A DNA stretch of 64,000 nucleotides from an uncultured Planctomycetia bacterium. GTDB lineage: Bacteria > Omnitrophota > Gorgyraeia > CAYWPX01. Both the position numbers and the translations under genes were made by a program. This document shows positions 6,885-64,000 of the stretch, piece after piece. The stretch is from assembly GCA_964460615.1 (NCBI GenBank), contig CAYWPX010000001.1:120073-184072 (forward strand), written 5' to 3'. The notes beneath the pieces are model-generated. The model was not told the DNA's origin, ran no database searches, and saw only the letters and a program-made list of their open reading frames with translations. Every line of letters starts with the position of its first letter. The first letter of the stretch is position 1.

Positions 6885-8267
6885 ATGGATAATTTATTTT
6901 CAATAATAAGATTGATCATAGGCCTAGGCCTGACAGTATTTATTGGTTACGTCTTATTAAGCGCGATCTTCAGGAAAAACCGTGAGGGCCTTAATTATTC
7001 GGAACGAATTTTTGTTTCATTCGGCCTTGGGATAATACTGCTTACTATGGAGCAGTTTTTTTATTCAATATTAAAGATCGAGTGGTCTATTTTTAACATT
7101 ATTGTTCCATGGGTAGCCTTATTTATTGCGAATTTATTTCTCACAAGAAATGAAGTTAAGGTTTTGAAAGCTGTTCCTAAGGAAAAAATAAGATTAAGCC
7201 TTTTAGAGAAGTTTTTGATATCCATTATTGTTATGGAGGTTATTTATGTGTTCTTCAAGGCATTCAGTTTCCCGCTCAGCGACTATGATGGATTGGCAAT
7301 ATACGGGATCAAAGCAAAATCTTTCTATTTAAATGGGACGGTTTTTACCGATATGTTCACCGAGAAGATTTTCATACCGGCCCATCCGGATTATCCTCTA
7401 CTTTTACCTTTAGCTGAAAGCTGGGTCTACATATTTCTCGGGAGTCTGAATGATTATCTGGTAAAGATATTGTTCCCGGTCTATTATGTAGGGCTTCTGG
7501 TCATATTTTTCAGTGTAATGTTAAATTTTTTCAAGAGGCGCGAGGCTATCCTTTTTACTTTTTTTGTTGCAACAGTTTCCCAGCTTAGGAATTTTGGTTA
7601 TTTCTGTTATGCGGAAATGCCTCTGATATTTTATTATACAGCCAGTTTTCTTTACCTATTCATGTGGATCAAGAAGGAAAAGTTATCTTTTCTTATACTC
7701 TCAGCCTTAATGGCATTTGGCGCTCTTTGGTCAAAGAACGAAGGAAGTTTGTTATTTCTGGTAAATCTGGCCGTTCTTTTGATAGCAATATTTGATAAAA
7801 AACTGAATTTAAAAAAAGCTTTGGTCTGTTTTTTCGCTTATTTAGTCACAGTAGTGGTACTATTTACGCCTTGGGTCATCGTAAAGACTTGTTTTAACCT
7901 CACTAATGATGTTATTAATAAAGATACCTTGAAAGTTTCTTTGATAGCCAGTAATCTTGATAGGATAGGGCCGATTTTGTATGAATACCAGAAACATATC
8001 TTCGGCCCGAAAAAATGGAATATTGTCTGGATACTGATTATCATGACATTTATACTTAAATTCAAAAATCTTCTTAAGCCGGATCAAAAATATTTTACGA
8101 TCGCACTTATTTTATGTTTTTTAGGTTATACAATGACCTATTTTATTACTCCGCAAAATCTGACATGGCATTTGTCAACCAGCGCCAGCAGGATCATCCT
8201 TCATTTTTTGCCGATAGGACTTTTCTGGGTAGCATTATGTACGAGAAAGGAATTAGATGATTTCTAG
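6885..8267 (+). CDS. polytopic membrane protein, possible GT-C-type glycosyltransferase
   Basis: 460 aa with about 10-12 hydrophobic segments; adjacent to a polyprenol-P sugar synthase as in ArnC/ArnT-like pairs. Family not confirmed. Confidence 0.55.
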   Translation: MDNLFSIIRLIIGLGLTVFIGYVLLSAIFRKNREGLNYSERIFVSFGLGIILLTMEQFFYSILKIEWSIFNIIVPWVALFIANLFLTRNEVKVLKAVPKEKIRLSLLEKFLISIIVMEVIYVFFKAFSFPLSDYDGLAIYGIKAKSFYLNGTVFTDMFTEKIFIPAHPDYPLLLPLAESWVYIFLGSLNDYLVKILFPVYYVGLLVIFFSVMLNFFKRREAILFTFFVATVSQLRNFGYFCYAEMPLIFYYTASFLYLFMWIKKEKLSFLILSALMAFGALWSKNEGSLLFLVNLAVLLIAIFDKKLNLKKALVCFFAYLVTVVVLFTPWVIVKTCFNLTNDVINKDTLKVSLIASNLDRIGPILYEYQKHIFGPKKWNIVWILIIMTFILKFKNLLKPDQKYFTIALILCFLGYTMTYFITPQNLTWHLSTSASRIILHFLPIGLFWVALCTRKELDDF

Positions 8268-27337: not shown

Positions 27338-27348
27338 TAAATTGGTAT

Positions 27349-27377
27349 AGGGTCAAGGGTTAAGGGATAAGCGGATA
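27349..27377 (+). repeat. heptad array (GGGTYAA-type) between the two ABC ATPase genes
   Basis: AGGGTCA AGGGTTA AGGGATA AGCGGATA; related TAGGGATAAGGGTTAG at about 61700. Confidence 0.6.
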
Positions 27378-27402
27378 AAATCTTTTAGAAAAAACAAATA
27401 TT

Positions 27403-30185: not shown

Positions 30186-30191
30186 TATAAT

Positions 30192-30256
30192 AGCTCATGG
30201 CTCGCAAGCTCATAGCTCATAGGTAAATTCCTAGAGCCCTGAACCTAGAGCCTGGG
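30192..30256 (+). repeat. heptad array (GCTCAT-type) plus duplicated CCTAGAGCC motif between the GNAT gene and leuC
   Basis: AGCTCATG GCTCGCA AGCTCATA GCTCATA; CCTAGAGCC-ctgaa-CCTAGAGCC. Confidence 0.7.
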
Positions 30257-30279
30257 GCAGTATTTAAGAGGGAATTAAA

Positions 30280-33418: not shown

Positions 33419-33421
33419 ATT

Positions 33422-33450
33422 GTACGGCGTACGGAGTAAGGAGTACGGCG
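33422..33450 (+). repeat. heptad array (GTACGGC)x4 between leuB and asd
   Basis: GTACGGC GTACGGA GTAAGGA GTACGGC. Confidence 0.7.
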
Positions 33451-33479
33451 TTAATAGCTATTAATAAATTGGGTGAAAG

Positions 33480-38596: not shown

Positions 38597-38602
38597 AAAC
38601 TA

Positions 38603-38676
38603 GCGATTAGGCGATTAAGTGATTAGGTAATTAGGTAAAACCCAATCACATAATCGCATAATTACCAAATCGCTAT
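38603..38676 (+). repeat. octad-periodic imperfect inverted repeat between argJ and argB
   Basis: GCGATTAG GCGATTAA GTGATTAG GTAATTAG ...loop... CAATCACA TAATCGCA TAATTACC AAATCGC (arms reverse-complementary at about 26 of 33 positions). Confidence 0.75.
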
Positions 38677-38693
38677 ATTATTAAAGGAAAAAA

Positions 38694-42929: not shown

Positions 42930-42957
42930 TTCATGGTTCATGGCTCATAGTTCATAG
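42928..42957 (+). repeat. heptad array (GTTCATG-type) overlapping the argG stop codon
   Basis: GTTCATG GTTCATG GCTCATA GTTCATA. Confidence 0.7.
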
Positions 42958-43009
42958 TTTAAAAGAACTGTGGCCAAGCGCCTGGAGCAAAACGCGGGAG
43001 AAAAAATTT

Positions 43010-48241: not shown

Positions 48242-48245
48242 ATTT

Positions 48246-48292
48246 AGCTCATAGTTCATAGCTCATAGCTGATGGCTGCGAGCTGAAAGCTT
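48246..48292 (+). repeat. heptad array pair between dapB and dapL
   Basis: AGCTCAT AGTTCAT AGCTCAT AGCTGAT GGCTGCG AGCTGAA AGCTT, ending 11 nt before ATG 48304. Confidence 0.7.
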
Positions 48293-48303
48293 AAGGGAAA
48301 AAC

Positions 48304-53255: not shown

Positions 53256-53501
53256 ATGGCAACAAAAGTAGCTAAGGTAGGAGTAAAAAGGGAGAAGGGT
53301 TTCCTTTACTTCATTGATAAGAATGGAGACGTTTCCAAGGCTAAGATGGCAAGAGGCAAGCAGAAAGGCGGCAAACCTCAGAAAGTAGCCAAGGTTGGCG
53401 TAAAGAAAGAAAAAGGATATCTCTATTTCCTCGATAAGCAGGGTGACGTTTCCCAGGCAAAGATGGTCAGAGGCGGTAAGAAAAAATCCAAAAAAAGATA
53501 A
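53256..53501 (+). CDS. small basic protein with two internal ~35-aa repeats
   Basis: KVAKVGVK[RK]EKG[FY]LYF[IL]DK[NQ]GDVS[KQ]AKM[AV]RG occurs twice; nucleotide copies differ mainly at third codon positions; AAGGAGG SD. Confidence 0.55.
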   Translation: MATKVAKVGVKREKGFLYFIDKNGDVSKAKMARGKQKGGKPQKVAKVGVKKEKGYLYFLDKQGDVSQAKMVRGGKKKSKKR

Positions 53502-53529
53502 TATTTTATCTTTTGTAGTATAAAAAAAG

Positions 53530-53575
53530 AACAGGTTTCCAAGAGATTAATCTCATGGAAACCTGTTTTTTCTTT
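53530..53575 (+). terminator. intrinsic terminator
   Basis: AACAGGTTTCC-loop-GGAAACCTGTT followed by TTTTTTCTTT. Confidence 0.7.
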
Positions 53576-53580
53576 AAAGC

Positions 53581-54285: not shown

Positions 54286-54323
54286 TTATTAGACCTAAGC
54301 TATCAGCCTTTAGCGCGATCACT

Positions 54324-54491
54324 AGCACAAGAACACATGAGCACAAGACACAGGAGTACAAGTACACAAGATCACTCGTCGCAAGTTTAAAGCTTTTACC
54401 GGTGCTCTTGTGACTGGTGCTCTGGTGACAGCAACGTTGGAGCCCTGGTGTCCTAATTATGCTGATAGCTGATTTCTGAAAACTGAAAGCT
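54324..54491 (+). repeat. composite intergenic array: 8-nt CACAAG-type units, partly complementary GGTGCTC units, then GCTGAWA heptads abutting the start codon
   Basis: AGCACAAG AACACATG AGCACAAG ACACAGG AGTACAAG TACACAAG; GGTGCTC TTGTGAC TGGTGCT CTGGTGA; GCTGATA GCTGATT TCTGAAA ACTGAAA GCT. Confidence 0.7.
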
Positions 54492-54496
54492 AAAAA

Positions 54497-55648: not shown

Positions 55649-55711
55649 CTCATTGCTCATAGTTCATAGTAAAAGCAATAACTGAAAGCTGATAGCTGAT
55701 AGCTGAAAGCT
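55640..55711 (+). repeat. heptad array pair: (AGCTCAT)x4 overlapping the stop codon, spacer, (GCTGAWA)x4
   Basis: AGCTCAT AGCTCAT TGCTCAT AGTTCAT ...17 nt... ACTGAAA GCTGATA GCTGATA GCTGAAA GCT. Confidence 0.75.
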
Positions 55712-55731
55712 AATTTGATAGGAAATAAAAA

Positions 55732-55986
55732 ATGTCAAAGATTAAACTGGATATGCATGATATATTTAATAAGTCCGAAGAGATTGAGTTGGAGCTTAAT
55801 AGGGTTATTGATGAAGCAATGCGAAAAAAGATCCAGCTTGTTGAGATAATCCCGGGTAAGGGGAGCGGCCAACTCAAAAAACATGTACTAAGATTTTTAC
55901 AAAATCCGGAAATCAAAAAACTATATCATCGCATAGAAAAAGACGATAAGAATTTTGGCAGGATCTTTGTGCATTTTAAGTTTTAA
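55732..55986 (+). CDS. Smr-domain protein
   Basis: 84 aa; LDMHD...IIPGKGSGQLKKHV matches the Smr LDLHG...HGKG pattern. Confidence 0.7.
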   Translation: MSKIKLDMHDIFNKSEEIELELNRVIDEAMRKKIQLVEIIPGKGSGQLKKHVLRFLQNPEIKKLYHRIEKDDKNFGRIFVHFKF

Positions 55987-55991
55987 GAGAA

Positions 55992-56064
55992 TGGCTCATG
56001 GTTCATAGCTCATTGCTCATAGTAAAAGCAAGAACTGAAGACTGTGAGCTGAAAGCTGAAAGCT
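55992..56064 (+). repeat. heptad array pair (GCTCAT-type then GCTGAA-type)
   Basis: GGCTCAT GGTTCAT AGCTCAT TGCTCAT ... GAGCTGAA AGCTGAA AGCT, ending 8 nt before ATG 56073. Confidence 0.75.
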
Positions 56065-56072
56065 AAAAAATA

Positions 56073-56765: not shown

Positions 56766-56880
56766 GCTCATAGCTCATGGTTCATAGCTCATACTAGAAA
56801 TAGTACGCAGTACACTGTACAAAGTACACAGTAAAAACATTACTTGTGTTCTGGTGACTGATAGCTGAAAGCTGACGACT
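56766..56880 (+). repeat. heptad arrays: (GCTCATA)x4, (AGTACAC)x5, GCTGA-type units
   Basis: GCTCATA GCTCATG GTTCATA GCTCATA; AGTACGC AGTACAC TGTACAA AGTACAC AGTAAAA; GATAGCT GAAAGCT GACGACT. Confidence 0.75.
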
Positions 56881-58179: not shown

Positions 58180-58878
58180 ATGAATAAAAACAATTCTTTA
58201 AAAGGATTTACTTTATTAGAACTTTTGGTTGTTATTGTTGTTATTGGTGTCTTGGCAGGGCTTCTTCTCCCCGTTATGAGCGGAGTCAGGGAGCAGGGTA
58301 GGCGTATTACTTGTCTCAACAATCTTCGCCAGCAAGGTATTGCATGGTATATGTATCTTGATGAGCATAATGATTGTTTTCCTGCATATAGTGATCCTCC
58401 AAATGATACGCAATGTATGGAAACCACTTTTGGGGGCAAAGCCGGTGATAGTGGGTTCGCAGCTACGTCGAGACCTCTTAATCGATATCTCGGGATAAAC
58501 AATACAACTCCTGCGGACGTTTTTCATTGTCCCGACGATATAAAAGCAGCTCAAGGCCAGAGCAGAACAGTCTTCGATGTTTTTGGGAACTCATATTATA
58601 TTAACCCATGCATTTTACTTTATGGGGTGACGGATAGAAGGCCCTTGGCTTCAATCACCAATCCACGTAATAAGGTGTGGTTTGAGATGTGTTCTTTGGA
58701 TATGGTCCCGGGACATAGTGGAAAAGGATTTCAAGGTAATTTCACGCCAGTAATGGTGCTTTTTGTAGATGGGCATGTAAAGGGGCCGTATCTTTCTGAC
58801 AGTGAATTTGACTGGTTTGATAATCCATCAAAATCCGTATGCTGGTATCCTAATGCTACAGAGGATCCTCTTGATTAG
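58180..58878 (+). CDS. prepilin-type N-terminal cleavage/methylation domain protein, DUF1559 (H-X9-DG) family
   Basis: KGFTLLELLVVIVVIG prepilin leader, conserved CxNNLRQ region, C-terminal LFVDGHV. Confidence 0.85.
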   Translation: MNKNNSLKGFTLLELLVVIVVIGVLAGLLLPVMSGVREQGRRITCLNNLRQQGIAWYMYLDEHNDCFPAYSDPPNDTQCMETTFGGKAGDSGFAATSRPLNRYLGINNTTPADVFHCPDDIKAAQGQSRTVFDVFGNSYYINPCILLYGVTDRRPLASITNPRNKVWFEMCSLDMVPGHSGKGFQGNFTPVMVLFVDGHVKGPYLSDSEFDWFDNPSKSVCWYPNATEDPLD

Positions 58879-58978: not shown

Positions 58979-59034
58979 AGTTTTGAAAGCTGATTTTAAA
59001 AATAGTTATCTATCCTGTCAAATTCGTAAAATTT

Positions 59035-59082
59035 AGATATAACTTATTTTAAATCAAATATTATACAGTGGTGCCAGGCACC
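59035..59082 (+). repeat. conserved upstream element ending in palindrome GGTGCC-A-GGCACC, copy 1
   Basis: AGATATAACTTATTTTAAATCAAATA..TTATA..GTGGTGCCAGGCACC; near-identical at 61088-61136, partial at 63202-63239. Confidence 0.75.
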
Positions 59083-59143
59083 AGAAAAAGTACTGGAGCT
59101 CGTGATCGTACTGATAACTCCAGCTACAAAGCTTCGACATAAA

Positions 59144-59200: not shown

Positions 59201-59788
59201 ATGAAAGTAATAGCATTTAACGGCAGCTCGCGAAAAGAAGGTAATACTGCAATTCTAATTAAGCTTGTGCTTAAGGAATTAGAGAAAGATGGTATCAAGA
59301 CTGAACTAGTGGAATTGGCCGGTGAAAAAATTCAAGGTTGCATTGCCTGTTACAAATGTGTTGCCAACAAAGATAAAAAATGCGCCATAAATGACGACAT
59401 AGTTAACGAGTGTATAGATAAAATGGATAAGGCGGATGGTATTATCATAGGTTCCCCTACATATTTTGCTGATTGCACTTCACAGACAAAGGCGCTTATT
59501 GAACGGGCTGGGTTTGTATCGAGAGCAAATGGAGGTATGTTTAAGCGTAAAATAGGTGCCGCAGTTGTATCTGTGAGGCGAGCTGGGGCGATACATGCTT
59601 TTAATAGTATAAATCACTTTTTTACAATAGGTGAGATGATAATAGTCGGGTCTAGCTACTGGAATATAGGTATAGGTAGAGAAATCGGCGATGTGGAAAA
59701 AGACGAAGAAGGTTTAAAGGTAATGAGTACACTTGGGAAGAATATGGCGTGGTTACTTAAGAAGATAGCTCCAGGCTCTGGGCTCTAG
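59201..59788 (+). CDS. flavodoxin-like NADPH-dependent FMN reductase / iron-sulfur flavoprotein family
   Basis: MKVIAFNGSSRKEGNT, GSPTYF flavin-binding motifs; Cys cluster CIACYKC...C; GGAGGA SD. Confidence 0.8.
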   Translation: MKVIAFNGSSRKEGNTAILIKLVLKELEKDGIKTELVELAGEKIQGCIACYKCVANKDKKCAINDDIVNECIDKMDKADGIIIGSPTYFADCTSQTKALIERAGFVSRANGGMFKRKIGAAVVSVRRAGAIHAFNSINHFFTIGEMIIVGSSYWNIGIGREIGDVEKDEEGLKVMSTLGKNMAWLLKKIAPGSGL

Positions 59789-59804
59789 GGAAAAAGCTCA
59801 TGGC

Positions 59805-59839
59805 TTCCGCCACAAAGCGTTGGCGGACAGGCATGGCGC
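59805..59839 (+). repeat. hairpin repeat element CTTCCGCCA-N8-TGGCGGACAGG, copy 2
   Basis: Same element as 56879-56912. Confidence 0.7.
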
Positions 59840-59978
59840 ATAGTAAAAATGAAGGACGATAGGCGAGGGATGAGAGGATAGTTTGGAGTTGGGAGCGAAA
59901 TCTATCTAAAGATAGATTTCAGGAGTTGGGAGTAAAAAAGTAAAAGAAAAAATGGGCGCCGTCCATATATATATCTAA

Positions 59979-60518
59979 ATGAAAAACTTCATAAATTTTA
60001 TCGTAAAGTACCTAGTATTTGTTTTTTTAGTTGTATTTACATTTATATCTAGCAGTTGTTGTGAGTTTGCTACTTCTGTTGCCCTAACGCACAAAATATC
60101 AAGTATTAGAGTTATTTCCGAAATTGATACAGGAGAAGCAGGAATTATTCAGATAAACGAAATTGATATTACTAAAGTTGCCGAGGATGTTTTTTTAAAG
60201 GGTGGGATAAGGGTGCTAAACAATAAAACATATGAAACGGAAAAATATCCCGGCACATTAAAAGTAATTATTAAATGGATTAAAATTAATGAGGAAAAAC
60301 ACTGCTGTAATTATACAATAAATTATGAATTATCGCAGTTCGATTCTATTGTGCAAGAAAATAACCCATATATTATTTATTCATCAGTTAGTGGGTCGGC
60401 TGGGCTAAAGGATATTAAAGAGAATATTTTAGGTTCTATAAGAAATTGGGTAAAAGATAGTATTAAAAAATCCCAAATATTTATTAAATATGAAAAAAAA
60501 GTCGATGCTTCTATTTAA
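59979..60518 (+). CDS. hypothetical exported or lipid-anchored protein
   Basis: 179 aa; N-terminal hydrophobic segment then Cys (FISSSCC); AT-rich coding region. Confidence 0.5.
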   Translation: MKNFINFIVKYLVFVFLVVFTFISSSCCEFATSVALTHKISSIRVISEIDTGEAGIIQINEIDITKVAEDVFLKGGIRVLNNKTYETEKYPGTLKVIIKWIKINEEKHCCNYTINYELSQFDSIVQENNPYIIYSSVSGSAGLKDIKENILGSIRNWVKDSIKKSQIFIKYEKKVDASI

Positions 60519-60560
60519 TAAAAAATAGGTGTGTCCCTATTTAAAATGGAAGATTAATAA

Positions 60561-61046
60561 ATGATTAAAATCAGATTTATTAATATATTTCTGACGCTAA
60601 TATTAGTAGTTTTAATGAAAACTTCCGGCATTTTTGCCGAAGGAATGCTTAATATCGAAGCAATTGATCTTCTTGATGAGTACAAAATAGTTTGTACCAA
60701 AACCGATCCTTCCTTTGAAGCTACCACTAGCGGTAAATTTATCTTTGATCCGGAAAAAAATAGCAATTACCCAATAGCATTTGTGGTTATGCTCACCCAG
60801 GATAGATCCGAAGGAGAGAATGAAGACGATCTCGATACAGTTATTAAGATGGTCATTTTAAAGGACCCTGTTTACAAAGACCTGATAAATAGCGAAAAAT
60901 CCGCAGACTCCGCCATTATACACATACCCAAGGCGAATGTCAGAAAGTCAGAAACCGAAAAGCATAATCTATCGATCAGTAAATATGAGGATGAACTAAA
61001 AAATTCAGGTGAATATAAAAATATAATATTTCCAGATAAGAAATAG
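60561..61046 (+). CDS. hypothetical secreted protein
   Basis: 161 aa; signal peptide ending SGIFA-EG; AT-rich. Confidence 0.5.
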   Translation: MIKIRFINIFLTLILVVLMKTSGIFAEGMLNIEAIDLLDEYKIVCTKTDPSFEATTSGKFIFDPEKNSNYPIAFVVMLTQDRSEGENEDDLDTVIKMVILKDPVYKDLINSEKSADSAIIHIPKANVRKSETEKHNLSISKYEDELKNSGEYKNIIFPDKK

Positions 61047-61087
61047 CAGGAGAGAGAGTGTAGTTCCTATTAAATTCTTGAAAATTA

Positions 61088-61136
61088 AGATATAACTTAT
61101 TTTAAATCAAATAGTTATAACGTGGTGCCTGGCACC
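61088..61136 (+). repeat. conserved upstream element ending in palindrome GGTGCC-T-GGCACC, copy 2
   Basis: About 45/49 identical to 59035-59082; its 3' end runs into the LamG reading frame. Confidence 0.75.
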
Positions 61137-61639
61137 GTAAAGGCACAGGAGAGACGGTAGGAAGATTTTATACTAGCTCTGGAGTCTCGTTAGTTGAAGG
61201 AGAGTGGTATAATCTTGCTTTTACTAGAAATTACAATACTTCCTCTATCTTAATTGACGGGGTTTCACTGCCCACAATTCAGCCCATAGATTGGGCCAGT
61301 AATATGGAAATTCTAACATCGCCAGTTTATTTGGGCAGTGCCGCAACAGCACCAGGATATGGATTAAGAGGATACTTAGACAATTTACAGATTTGGAATT
61401 ATGCGCGAACTGAGCAGCAATTAAAGGATTCCATTACTAATTTACCGAATGGTAACGAGGAAGGCTTAATGGGGTATTGGAATTTTGATAATATTCAAAA
61501 TGGTGTTGTGCCTGACTTAACTGAATATGGTAATAATGGTTTTATTAATCCGCCTATTTCTACGCCAGAGCCTGTATCAATGCTTTTATTTGGTATCGGT
61601 GGATGGGTGTTGGCGCTATTAAGAAAAAAACGCTCATAA
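61121..61639 (+). pseudogene. LamG-like (concanavalin-type) PEP-CTERM protein, 5'-truncated fragment
   Basis: Frame open from 61121 encodes a LamG C-terminal half (EGEWYNLAFTRNYNTSSILIDGV, DNLQIWNYARTEQQL) and a PEP-CTERM tail (TPEPVSMLLFGIGGWVLALLRKKRS); no N-terminal half or signal peptide; first in-frame ATG at 61304. Confidence 0.6.
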
Positions 61640-61764
61640 TATTGGATTGACTAAATTCTACCTACGCAGTATTATTTAGGAGTAGGAGTAAGGAAAAGGG
61701 TTCCTTACTGAATAGGGATAAGGGTTAGAAAATAATTAGTAGCTGTCCCTAATTAACGTACCCT

Positions 61765-61974
61765 ATGCATTCTGCAATAGATTGGATTCCCATAGAAACT
61801 GTATCATTTAGTAGAATAAAAGAATTCATGACTAATGTAACGACTAAGCTTCAAAATATGCTGCTCGAAGATGTTCTTAAAAACGTTGAAATGGATAAAA
61901 AAGAACGTGAGCTGTTTAAAGCTTTGTATAAAAGTAATGAAGCAATTCTTTGTATTAAATGGCCGGTTTATTAA
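61765..61974 (+). CDS. hypothetical small protein
   Basis: 69-aa ORF; no recognisable motif or clear SD. Confidence 0.3.
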   Translation: MHSAIDWIPIETVSFSRIKEFMTNVTTKLQNMLLEDVLKNVEMDKKERELFKALYKSNEAILCIKWPVY

Positions 61975-62002
61975 AAACGTAAGTTAATTTGGAGGTGGTA
62001 AT

Positions 62003-62047
62003 ATGCAAAACCTCGCGTTAAAAGTAGCTGGATTTGTTTTTGGGTTA
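62003..62047 (+). pseudogene. truncated 5' copy of the small membrane-protein gene
   Basis: ATGCAAAACCTCGCGTTAAAAGTAGCTGGATTTGTTTTTGGGTTA with GGAGGTG SD matches the 5' end of 62111 and 63736; frame stops after 26 codons. Confidence 0.5.
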
Positions 62048-62110
62048 GAAGTAAAAAACGGGTCACACCTATTTATTTGAAATTACTATAGAAAACCGGG
62101 AGGTTCAACC

Positions 62111-62296
62111 ATGCAAGACATCGCGTTAAAAGTAGCTGGATTTGTTTTTGGGTTAGTGGCTATATTACATCTTTTGAGAGTGTTATTTAAAGTAAAGTTT
62201 ACGGCAAATAATATTGTAATTCCTCTATGGCTAAGTGTAGTTGCTTCGATAGTGGCGCTGTTGCTGGCGCTTTTTATGTTCGCGTGTTTGCAATAG
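62111..62296 (+). CDS. small membrane protein, two predicted TM helices (copy 1)
   Basis: 61 aa; paralog of 63736-63924; C-terminal 24 aa identical between copies. Confidence 0.5.
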   Translation: MQDIALKVAGFVFGLVAILHLLRVLFKVKFTANNIVIPLWLSVVASIVALLLALFMFACLQ

Positions 62297-62430
62297 GGGA
62301 AGTTTGGAGTTGGCCTAGATGCCTATACCACTCCTAGTCCTCGTGGTGCTTAACGGCATCGCGGCATGAAATCGCGCATCGCTTGATTTCAGGAGTATGC
62401 GGTAACAAGTCGCAGGCCTCAGATTACATG
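62297..62430 (+). repeat. conserved GC-richer non-coding element downstream of the small membrane-protein gene
   Basis: 62279-62370 appears identical to 63909-64000 where the window ends; contains a 16-codon hydrophobic mini-ORF (MPIPLLVLVVLNGIAA). Confidence 0.6.
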
Positions 62431-62474
62431 CTAAAAGAGAAGAAAATTTTAGTAAAAGTGAGAAAAACATTAAA

Positions 62475-62876
62475 ATGAAAAAGATAAATGTAATACTAGT
62501 AATATTATTAAGCATAAGTTGTATGGGATTTTCGTTTATGAAGAAAGAATTGTCAAAAGAAAAGATATTGGAAATCGCCATTAATAGGGCAAATGAACTT
62601 GGGTTTACTCTCAATCAGGTTACTCCTTACTTTGACGAGGGAAACAAAAGACTTAAAGAACACTCAAGAAATAGCGGCGTGTCCACCTATAACGAAAAGA
62701 AAGAAGAGTGGGTATATGACGCGCCATCTACCCCGACAAAAAAATATCCTGAATTAGAAGATCGAAATTATCAGGCGGTATATTTTGCCCCCAAAGAAAT
62801 GCAGCTTGGTGGCGATCTCTGGATCTTTATAGACAAGAACACCGGGGAAGTGATCTCGTATGTGTTTGGGAAATAA
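62475..62876 (+). CDS. hypothetical lipoprotein or secreted protein
   Basis: 133 aa; N-terminal signal-like segment with Cys (LLSISCMG). Confidence 0.5.
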   Translation: MKKINVILVILLSISCMGFSFMKKELSKEKILEIAINRANELGFTLNQVTPYFDEGNKRLKEHSRNSGVSTYNEKKEEWVYDAPSTPTKKYPELEDRNYQAVYFAPKEMQLGGDLWIFIDKNTGEVISYVFGK

Positions 62877-62880
62877 AGAT

Positions 62881-63010
62881 GCTCAAGGCTCCAGGCTCTA
62901 GGGAAAAACAAAATACCGCTCCAGGTTCGGGGGTGAGTCCCCTTCGGCGAGGCTATGCTTCGCTTTGCACGGGTGAGAGGAAAACCTAGAGCTCTGAGCC
63001 TAGAGCCAAG
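62881..63010 (+). repeat. GC-rich structured intergenic element with long-range inverted repeat
   Basis: GGCTCCAGGCTCTAGGG ...~80 nt... CCTAGAGCTCTGAGCCTAGAGCC; internal GGGG-tgagt-CCCC hairpin; related motifs at 59769-59795 and 30230-30256. Confidence 0.55.
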
Positions 63011-63201
63011 AGCGGGTTTTGTGCTATATTAAATTGATGGAACAACAAAACCCTTTGTGTTATAATAAATGGTAACAGATTCGAGTAACACGGAAAGGGA
63101 ACAAGAAGCAATGGGTCTTTTTGGTAGCAAACAAAATAAAAGTATAAAGGTGAATTAATTTAAGCCGGGGATAAAATTCTCGGTTTTTTTGTTCAAAACT
63201 C

Positions 63202-63239
63202 TTTTAAATTTAAGTATTTATAAAGCGGTGCCTGGCACC
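63202..63239 (+). repeat. partial copy 3 of the GGTGCC-T-GGCACC palindrome element
   Basis: TTTTAAAT...TATTTATAAAGCGGTGCCTGGCACC, 22 nt upstream of ATG 63262. Confidence 0.6.
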
Positions 63240-63261
63240 GAAAAATTAAAAAGGAGAAAAA

Positions 63262-63651: not shown

Positions 63652-63735
63652 ATTCTAAAAATTAATTAAGCAATAAAAGTGGTGAGTAATAATAAGGGAA
63701 AAGGGGACGCTTCTATTTAAGTTGAAGGCACAACC

Positions 63736-63924
63736 ATGCAAAACCTCGCACTAAAAGTAGCTGGATGTATATTTGTTATAGTGGCTATTATGCAGCTTTT
63801 GAGAGTGCTATTTAAGGTAAAGATTGTGGTTAATGATAATATTATTGTTCCTATATGGCTTAGCGTGGTGGCTTCGATAGTGGCGTTGTTACTTGCGCTT
63901 TTTATGTTCGCGTGTTTGCAATAG
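63736..63924 (+). CDS. small membrane protein, two predicted TM helices (copy 2)
   Basis: 62 aa; paralog of 62111-62296. Confidence 0.5.
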   Translation: MQNLALKVAGCIFVIVAIMQLLRVLFKVKIVVNDNIIVPIWLSVVASIVALLLALFMFACLQ

Positions 63925-64000
63925 GGGAAGTTTGGAGTTGGCCTAGATGCCTATACCACTCCTAGTCCTCGTGGTGCTTAACGGCATCGCGGCATGAAAT

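Follow-up and report, generated by a model that had tools for sequence, protein, structure and literature searches.

Positions 61121–61639 of the stretch of DNA analyzed here (64 kb of a 331.6-kb contig, hereafter the window) very probably represent a recently truncated pseudogene, namely the surviving 3′ part of a gene that encoded a secreted, surface-sorted and lectin-like PEP-CTERM protein with a LamG domain. An earlier note on this DNA had offered a pseudogene as one of two alternatives, and this is the alternative that the incomplete domain, the lack of a start codon, ribosome-binding site and signal peptide, and the absence of the missing half from the window all favor, whether the event was an insertion, a replacement or a deletion.

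The open frame and its coding character

The following features of the locus are used throughout.

61121–61639, + strand: remnant of a LamG-domain PEP-CTERM gene, 172 codons and a stop (translation, Pfam and NCBIfam matches, codon usage)
61145–61423, + strand: partial Laminin_G_3 (concanavalin-like) domain, profile positions 61–150 of 151 (Pfam, residues 9–101)
61436–61549, + strand: conserved "GYW" strand segment, GLMGYWNFDN..GVVPDLTEYGNNGFI (phmmer alignments reach query residue ~142–144)
61559–61636, + strand: PEP-CTERM sorting signal consisting of PEP, a hydrophobic helix and RKKRS (TIGR02595 23.2 bits; PF07589 19.6 bits)
61304–61639, + strand: the only open reading frame (ORF) with a start codon, 111 amino acids, P0001 in the public annotation (start-codon scan)

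A TAA codon at 61118–61120 is followed on the + strand by a frame that opens with CGT at 61121 and closes with TAA at 61637–61639; the 75 nt 5′ of it contain five in-frame stops, all between 61049 and 61120. The earlier note had the frame open right after a stop inside a conserved palindrome element. The frame does open after a stop in the element, but this stop belongs to the AT-rich part, 3 nt 5′ of the palindrome itself. By our own estimate, a 172-codon frame would be open by chance at 40% GC with a probability of ~1e-5, and the mean log codon frequency was −4.08 for this frame, compared to −4.54 and −4.73 for the other two. As a chance frame of this length is so rare and the codon usage is coding-like in this frame only, 61121–61639 is a real former coding sequence.

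The first in-frame ATG was previously placed at 61304, and a scan of the frame that included GTG and TTG returned the same position. Read directly, the sequence shows no hydrophobic stretch at the N-terminus of either the 172-residue frame or the 111-residue ORF, which bears out the statement that no signal peptide is present.

Domain composition of the remnant

The frame matched Pfam Laminin_G_3 (PF13385) with residues 9–101, at an E value of 6e-12 and 46.4 bits (curated cut-off, 27.6 bits). The C-terminal ~60% of the LamG domain is present and profile positions 1–60 are absent, so that the claim of a C-terminal part only was confirmed; the ~150 profile positions of a complete, two-sheet sandwich domain are not found in the remnant. 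A single-sequence AlphaFold2 model of the fragment was uninformative (pLDDT 42.5).

The C-terminus reads STPEP-VSMLLFGIGGWVLALL-RKKRS-stop, with a PEP motif, a transmembrane helix and a basic cluster at the very end. TIGR02595 (PEP-CTERM, NCBIfam) matched residues 148–171 above its cut-off of 16 bits, in agreement with the canonical sorting tail recognized earlier, and PF07589 scored slightly below its cut-off of 20.7 bits. Neither a second PEP-CTERM tail nor a LamG paralog was found in the 64-kb window. Genomes with this sorting signal would be expected to encode a cognate exosortase (EpsH/Xrt) and several PEP-CTERM proteins; the only protein of the window with 10 transmembrane segments (6885–8267) has no exosortase match in Pfam.

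Between the LamG part and the tail, residues ~106–143 (GLMGYWNFDN...EYGNNGFI) form a further conserved segment, which comes after each LamG unit in the phmmer alignments of homologs. The possibility that this GYW segment is the start of a second truncated LamG domain was considered and dropped, since the equivalent segment in PDB 4dqa_A (residues 316–336 of a 355-residue chain) follows a single LamG domain and ends the chain. For the same reason, the succession of LamG part, GYW segment and PEP-CTERM signal may be a native 3′ end.

About 97% of PEP-CTERM proteins carry a signal peptide, and the sorting model requires Sec export before the exosortase acts (Haft et al. 2006, PMC1569441); the remnant has no such peptide. 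It resembles the LamG PEP-CTERM substrates of exosortases (EpsH/Xrt) in having a partial LamG domain, a GYW segment and a PEP-CTERM signal in the usual order, but differs from them in lacking a signal peptide, a start codon and profile positions 1–60, and in its identity of at most ~38% to any known protein.

Homologs and the extent of the missing part

When 1.84 billion representative proteins were searched exhaustively with phmmer, 11,450 matches were obtained at E ≤ 1e-3. Except for the fragment's own ORF, all of these were distant (25–38% identity), and neither a close homolog nor a full-length ortholog was found in this set; a word-indexed protein search with the 172-residue frame returned only its own ORF. 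The best matches were giant multi-LamG repeat proteins of 2,000–7,800 residues with up to 27 matched units each, which share the same repeat unit, although the window holds a single, partial one. No PEP-CTERM-like tail was found in the 149 homologs that were among the best 150 of the 11,450 matches; the only such tail belonged to the query's own ORF, P0001.

When the fragment was re-aligned to these 149 homologs (1010 matched units), the homologous stretch covered query residues ~20–143, most alignments beginning at residues 18–26. Successive LamG units in the homologs are at least 200–240 residues apart and ~125 residues are homologous in the fragment; therefore, ~75–100 residues are missing. 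The alignment to full-length homologs that the earlier note had proposed thus gave an estimate of the loss from distant multi-LamG proteins, but no full-length ortholog to compare with.

The missing half was then sought in the window by tblastn with the 110 residues that precede each matched homolog unit (462 queries). The matches fell only at 61451–61615, the fragment's own GYW segment, and the missing LamG half was found neither in the upstream DNA nor in the rest of the 64-kb window. The 5′ half may be present in another part of the genome, outside the window.

The ORF directly upstream (60561–61046, 161 amino acids) was examined as a split-off N-terminal half and rejected, as it has its own signal peptide and no similarity to LamG. 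It had no Pfam match and no homolog among 5.8 billion proteins, and because it is an orphan it offers no synteny route to the ancestral state. Together with an adjoining ORF, it makes up 59979–61046, a region of two small secreted proteins (179 and 161 amino acids) with a GC content of 0.29–0.34, neither of which had a Pfam or NCBIfam match.

The 111-residue ORF

The public record describes the locus as a 111-residue protein. A real product starting at ATG 61304, tail-anchored or otherwise functional as a mini-protein, would have in its favor that the ORF and its ATG were called by both the NCBI and the Logan annotation pipelines, and that ~20% of the window's ORF starts have an equally weak Shine–Dalgarno sequence. 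However, the duplex energy at 61304 is only −2.4 kcal/mol, which is the level of a random ATG (median of all ATGs in the window, −2.75; median of ORF starts, −5.0). The product would begin at about profile position 120 of 151, in the middle of the β-sandwich, and comprise about a quarter of the LamG fold and the sorting tail. It would also lack a signal peptide, although a PEP-CTERM tail needs Sec export (PMC1569441), and no homolog of the short form was found among the 1.84 billion representative proteins. A genuine 111-residue protein is therefore, in our judgment, very unlikely.

A conserved element at the start of the frame

The beginning of the open frame overlaps an element of ~87 nt that occurs three times in the window and contains a 13-nt palindrome.

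61124–61136, no strand: 13-nt palindrome GGTGCCTGGCACC, with a central T in copies 2 and 3 and a central A in copy 1
59013–59098, + strand: element copy 1, upstream of an FMN-reductase gene (alignment, blastn)
61066–61152, + strand: element copy 2, ~87 nt (alignment of the copies, blastn, repeat family D9)
63197–63255, + strand: element copy 3, with a shorter similarity, upstream of a PEGA lipoprotein gene (alignment)

With its variable center, the palindrome reads GGTGCC(W)GGCACC and has three sites in the window, compared to 0.5 expected; in the element, GGTGCCWGGCACC follows an AT-rich leader. Copies 1 and 2 are 84% identical over ~87–88 nt (blastn), and the similarity of copy 3 to the others extends over about 43–60 nt. 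All three share an AT-rich stretch, a TTATA box 4 nt 5′ of the palindrome, an A-rich run and GGAG, and lie ~2.05–2.10 kb apart. The palindrome is better conserved than its flanks, and the similarity stops at GGAG, ~15 nt 3′ of it.

The three copies differ in what follows them. The palindrome of copy 1 ends 118 nt 5′ of an intact FMN-reductase gene (ATG 59201; Pfam FMN_red). In copy 3, which has a terminator-like hairpin just 5′ of it (63162–63186), the element ends in AAGGAG, the GGAG of which is the Shine–Dalgarno sequence of an intact PEGA lipoprotein gene (ATG 63262; Pfam PEGA). Copy 2 contains the AT-rich part, a TTATAAC box with the in-frame stop 61118–61120, the palindrome and a Shine–Dalgarno-like AGGAG.

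With only three copies to judge from, a shared promoter or leader with a palindromic protein-binding site is the most likely identity of the element. It does not look like the canonical TTGACA/TATAAT promoters visible elsewhere in the window, e.g., before rplM, argC and pgk. A search against Rfam gave nothing, either at the gathering threshold or at E ≤ 1, and the RNA folds of the element were not, or only weakly, better than those of shuffled sequences. Scans for the element in GTDB representative genomes and in metagenome contigs gave 3 and 4 loci, respectively, all in unrelated organisms and in a number at chance level, so far suggesting that the element is private to this genome.

At several of these unrelated loci the 13-mer GGTGCC(W)GGCACC, often with an A-rich run, occurs two or three times (L004, 3291–3370; L007, 1826 and 3144; L008, 2745–2776). 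The bacteria concerned are unrelated and include a gammaproteobacterial MAG of 70% GC, and in L008 and L009 an inverted pair of 13-mers forms a terminator-like hairpin. As there are no more matches in total than chance would give, this is probably a coincidence with REP- or terminator-like palindromes.

A sigma-54 promoter was an attractive candidate for the element because proteobacterial PEP-CTERM genes carry upstream sigma-54/PrsR sites (PMC1569441; Aquincola pepA, PMC9850573). Here too, an element with TGGCAC stands directly 5′ of a PEP-CTERM gene, and copy 2, which reads TGGCAC-N5-AGGCA, has the GG-N10-GC spacing of those sites. The candidate was rejected: only copy 2 fits TGGCAC-N5-TTGCW, with 2 mismatches, copies 1 and 3 lack the −12 GC, and the consensus matches in the window (15 versus 23.3 expected) are fewer than expected by chance. 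In contrast to the known sites, the start site implied in copy 3 would fall 3′ of the Shine–Dalgarno sequence, and Motif 1 (...TTTACA) with its ~63-nt spacer is absent; moreover, the sigma-54/PrsR site of PEP-CTERM genes is restricted to Proteobacteria (PMC1569441). A MITE or insertion-sequence element was also rejected by inspection, as no inverted repeat is formed by the two ends (CCTATTAAATTC... and ...GGCACAGGAGAG) and no target-site duplication is common to the flanks of copies 1 and 2.

Could the element express or rearrange the remnant?

The second alternative of the earlier note was a cassette-fused gene expressed from the element, here through a non-canonical start. Such a gene would be consistent with the position of AGGAG (61147–61151), which lies where copy 3 has its Shine–Dalgarno sequence. 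However, no start codon is found among those that come next in frame (GAG, ACG, GTA and GGA), and the product would be devoid of a signal peptide and of ~40% of the domain.

An integron context is not supported either. From ~53 kb on, the window does resemble a cassette array, with short, co-oriented and unrelated genes separated by imperfect palindromes, but imperfect palindromes also occur between housekeeping genes throughout the window, and R″/R′ pairs (RYYYAAC...GTTRRRY) are absent from both strands. A screen of both strands of the whole window by regular expression and complementarity, which is not equivalent to the IntegronFinder covariance model, gave 0 attC candidates. Among the ORFs examined near the gene array, no integrase-like gene was noticed. 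Without a start codon after GGAG, attC-type sites or an integron-like cassette context, the idea of an element-fused, expressed gene is not supported, and we consider it highly improbable.

Recombination at the palindrome offers another way to account for a gene without its 5′ end. The Mycoplasma pulmonis vsa/vrs system and the R64 shufflon are recombination-based phase-variation systems with silent, 5′-truncated surface-protein genes, and the present locus resembles them in that a surface-protein gene lacking its 5′ end begins right after a short conserved site. In such a system, the remnant would be a silent segment, the palindrome the crossover site, and the segment would be linked by site-specific recombination to an expression site elsewhere with a promoter, start codon, signal peptide and N-terminal half. 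Several features are consistent with this: the truncated gene starts immediately 3′ of the site, the palindrome is conserved more than its flanks, the copies are spaced by ~2.05–2.10 kb, and copy 1 has the opposite central base from copies 2 and 3, so that sites would exist in both polarities.

Against it, only one of the three copies precedes a truncated gene, the other two heading complete genes with their own Shine–Dalgarno sequence and ATG, whereas silent genes of this kind would be expected at the sites of a vsa-like or shufflon system. The upstream halves of the copies are the same; therefore, an exchange would change nothing. The site is not within an open frame as it is in those systems, the frame through it being closed by the stop 3 nt upstream. 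None of the ORFs examined stood out as a recombinase gene, and the Logan and ENA contigs over copies 1, 2 and 3 showed no alternative junction. We accordingly see only a very slim chance that the remnant is a silent segment of this type, and an equally slim one that GGTGCC(W)GGCACC is the crossover site of an undescribed system that shuffles ~2-kb gene modules in this poorly sampled lineage. If it were, crossover at the palindrome would generate variation of an exosortase-sorted surface protein.

The junction and its occurrence in other assemblies

Copy 2 resembles the other copies as far as GGAG, and the LamG homology begins within a few codons after it. The gene was therefore cut at ~61152–61165, which is roughly where a start codon would be expected.

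This arrangement was found in other assemblies. Logan contig L001 (run SRR12487046) is 100% identical to the window over 59797–62042, and ENA contig L011 (ERZ4216102) is 100% identical over 60229–61260. The junction is thus not peculiar to one assembler; the reads behind the assemblies may be shared. Over copies 1 and 3, too, the contigs run colinear with the window, hence no alternative junction was seen. Look-ups for six neighboring proteins likewise gave only short contigs colinear with the window, with the exception of the 5′ part of L011.

In L011, positions 1–1109, which are joined to window position 60229, consist of unrelated and very AT-rich DNA with tandem small genes (MKILITE.KR...), so that the 3′ part of the window's 179-residue ORF receives a different N-terminus. 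Either the assembly is chimeric here or the contig comes from a strain variant in which the gene is a mosaic. A chimeric origin of the junction itself might be suspected from this foreign part of L011 and from the low coverage of the ENA contigs (~2x), but 61047–61260 is 100% identical in the NCBI contig, L001 and L011, albeit with reads that are possibly shared, and we regard an assembly artifact at this point as exceedingly improbable.

Genomic context

The first 53 kb of the window contain housekeeping genes, all on the + strand, for glycolysis, arginine, lysine and leucine biosynthesis and ribosomal proteins (assigned by reading the translations, mostly without profiles). From ~53 kb, short unrelated genes follow, again all on the + strand, and the last 5 kb encode orphan secreted proteins, with a GC dip to 0.335 at 60–62 kb compared to ~0.40.

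Two duplications lie near the remnant. The gene for a 61-residue membrane protein has, just 5′ of the full copy at 61991–62070, a truncated duplicate of its 5′ part, and a segmental duplication (62101–62372 and 63726–64000, 78–93% identity) repeats this gene and its downstream region. According to ENA contig L002 (1116–1567, 92% identity to 62106–62554), the duplication runs past the end of the window into a paralog of the gene for a 133-residue lipoprotein. Because of this truncated duplicate and the nearby segmental duplication, gene debris from unequal or illegitimate recombination appears to be a local habit, which the LamG remnant would fit.

Many intergenic spacers of the window, including those between housekeeping genes, are made of degenerate tandem units of 7–8 nt followed by roughly complementary units ("stutter" hairpins). 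Examples of such units are gcgattag gcgattaa gtgattag gtaattag and gctcata gctcatt gctcata. The spacers are located as follows.

27338–27402: stutter spacer
30186–30279: stutter spacer
33419–33479: stutter spacer
38597–38693: stutter spacer
42930–43009: stutter spacer
48242–48303: stutter spacer
54286–54496: stutter spacer
55649–55732: stutter spacer
55988–56072: stutter spacer
56766–56880: stutter spacer
61677–61730: stutter spacer
62877–63015: stutter spacer

Compared to shuffled sequences, the folds gave z values of about −2.3 for three of these hairpins and about 0 for the others. They had no Rfam match and are not attC sites. One stutter-repeat arm, GCTCCAGGCTCTGGGCTCTAGGG, encodes the last codons of the FMN reductase (..APGSGL) at 59768–59795 and recurs as non-coding DNA at 62881–62908, after the gene for the 133-residue lipoprotein; thus, the intergenic repeats reach into coding ends.

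Two other genes of this part of the window were noted. The very basic 81-residue protein encoded at 53256–53501 is made up of an internal tandem duplication of ~117 nt with 75% identity (KVAKVGVK.EKG.LYF.DK.GDVS.AKM), and its gene is followed by a strong terminator palindrome (53521–53576). Positions 58180–58878 encode a protein with a prepilin-type N-terminal methylation motif, of the DUF1559 kind, with a weak match to the H-X9-DG C-terminus. Taken with the low GC and the giant multi-LamG relatives, this protein would point to a lineage of the PVC-group or Omnitrophota-like type.

Proposed origin of the remnant and its significance

Returning to the probable pseudogene, the following history would account for the locus. 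The ancestral gene would have encoded a Sec-exported LamG-domain protein with a PEP-CTERM (exosortase) sorting tail. The start codon, the signal peptide and ~75–100 residues at the beginning of the LamG unit would then have been lost by deletion or illegitimate recombination, with a left breakpoint at ~61152–61165, directly 3′ of the Shine–Dalgarno-like GGAG that ends the element, and a right breakpoint inside the LamG domain. Two routes are conceivable: either the gene carried the element natively and suffered an internal deletion, or recombination placed a module headed by the element against the gene's middle part. In either case, the element, as a putative promoter or leader, would head several genes in a duplicated and fast-changing part of the chromosome, and the remnant may still be transcribed from it.

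The event was probably recent, given that the frame is still open and that profile models still recognize it, though 172 codons that remain open could alternatively mean ongoing selection. From the lack of both a usable translation start and an export signal, we infer that the remnant would make no functional PEP-CTERM protein.

P0001, the 111-residue protein of the public record, most likely corresponds to the end of a dead gene, and its entry deserves to be marked as a pseudogene. As an ordinary dead gene fragment, the locus would matter little beyond annotation hygiene. Its surroundings mark the end of the window as fast-changing, with orphan secreted proteins, duplicated modules and gene debris. 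The ribosomal protein L13 encoded in the window has no relative above 90% identity, and, with the full genome, the element family could define an envelope-protein regulon in an almost unsampled lineage.
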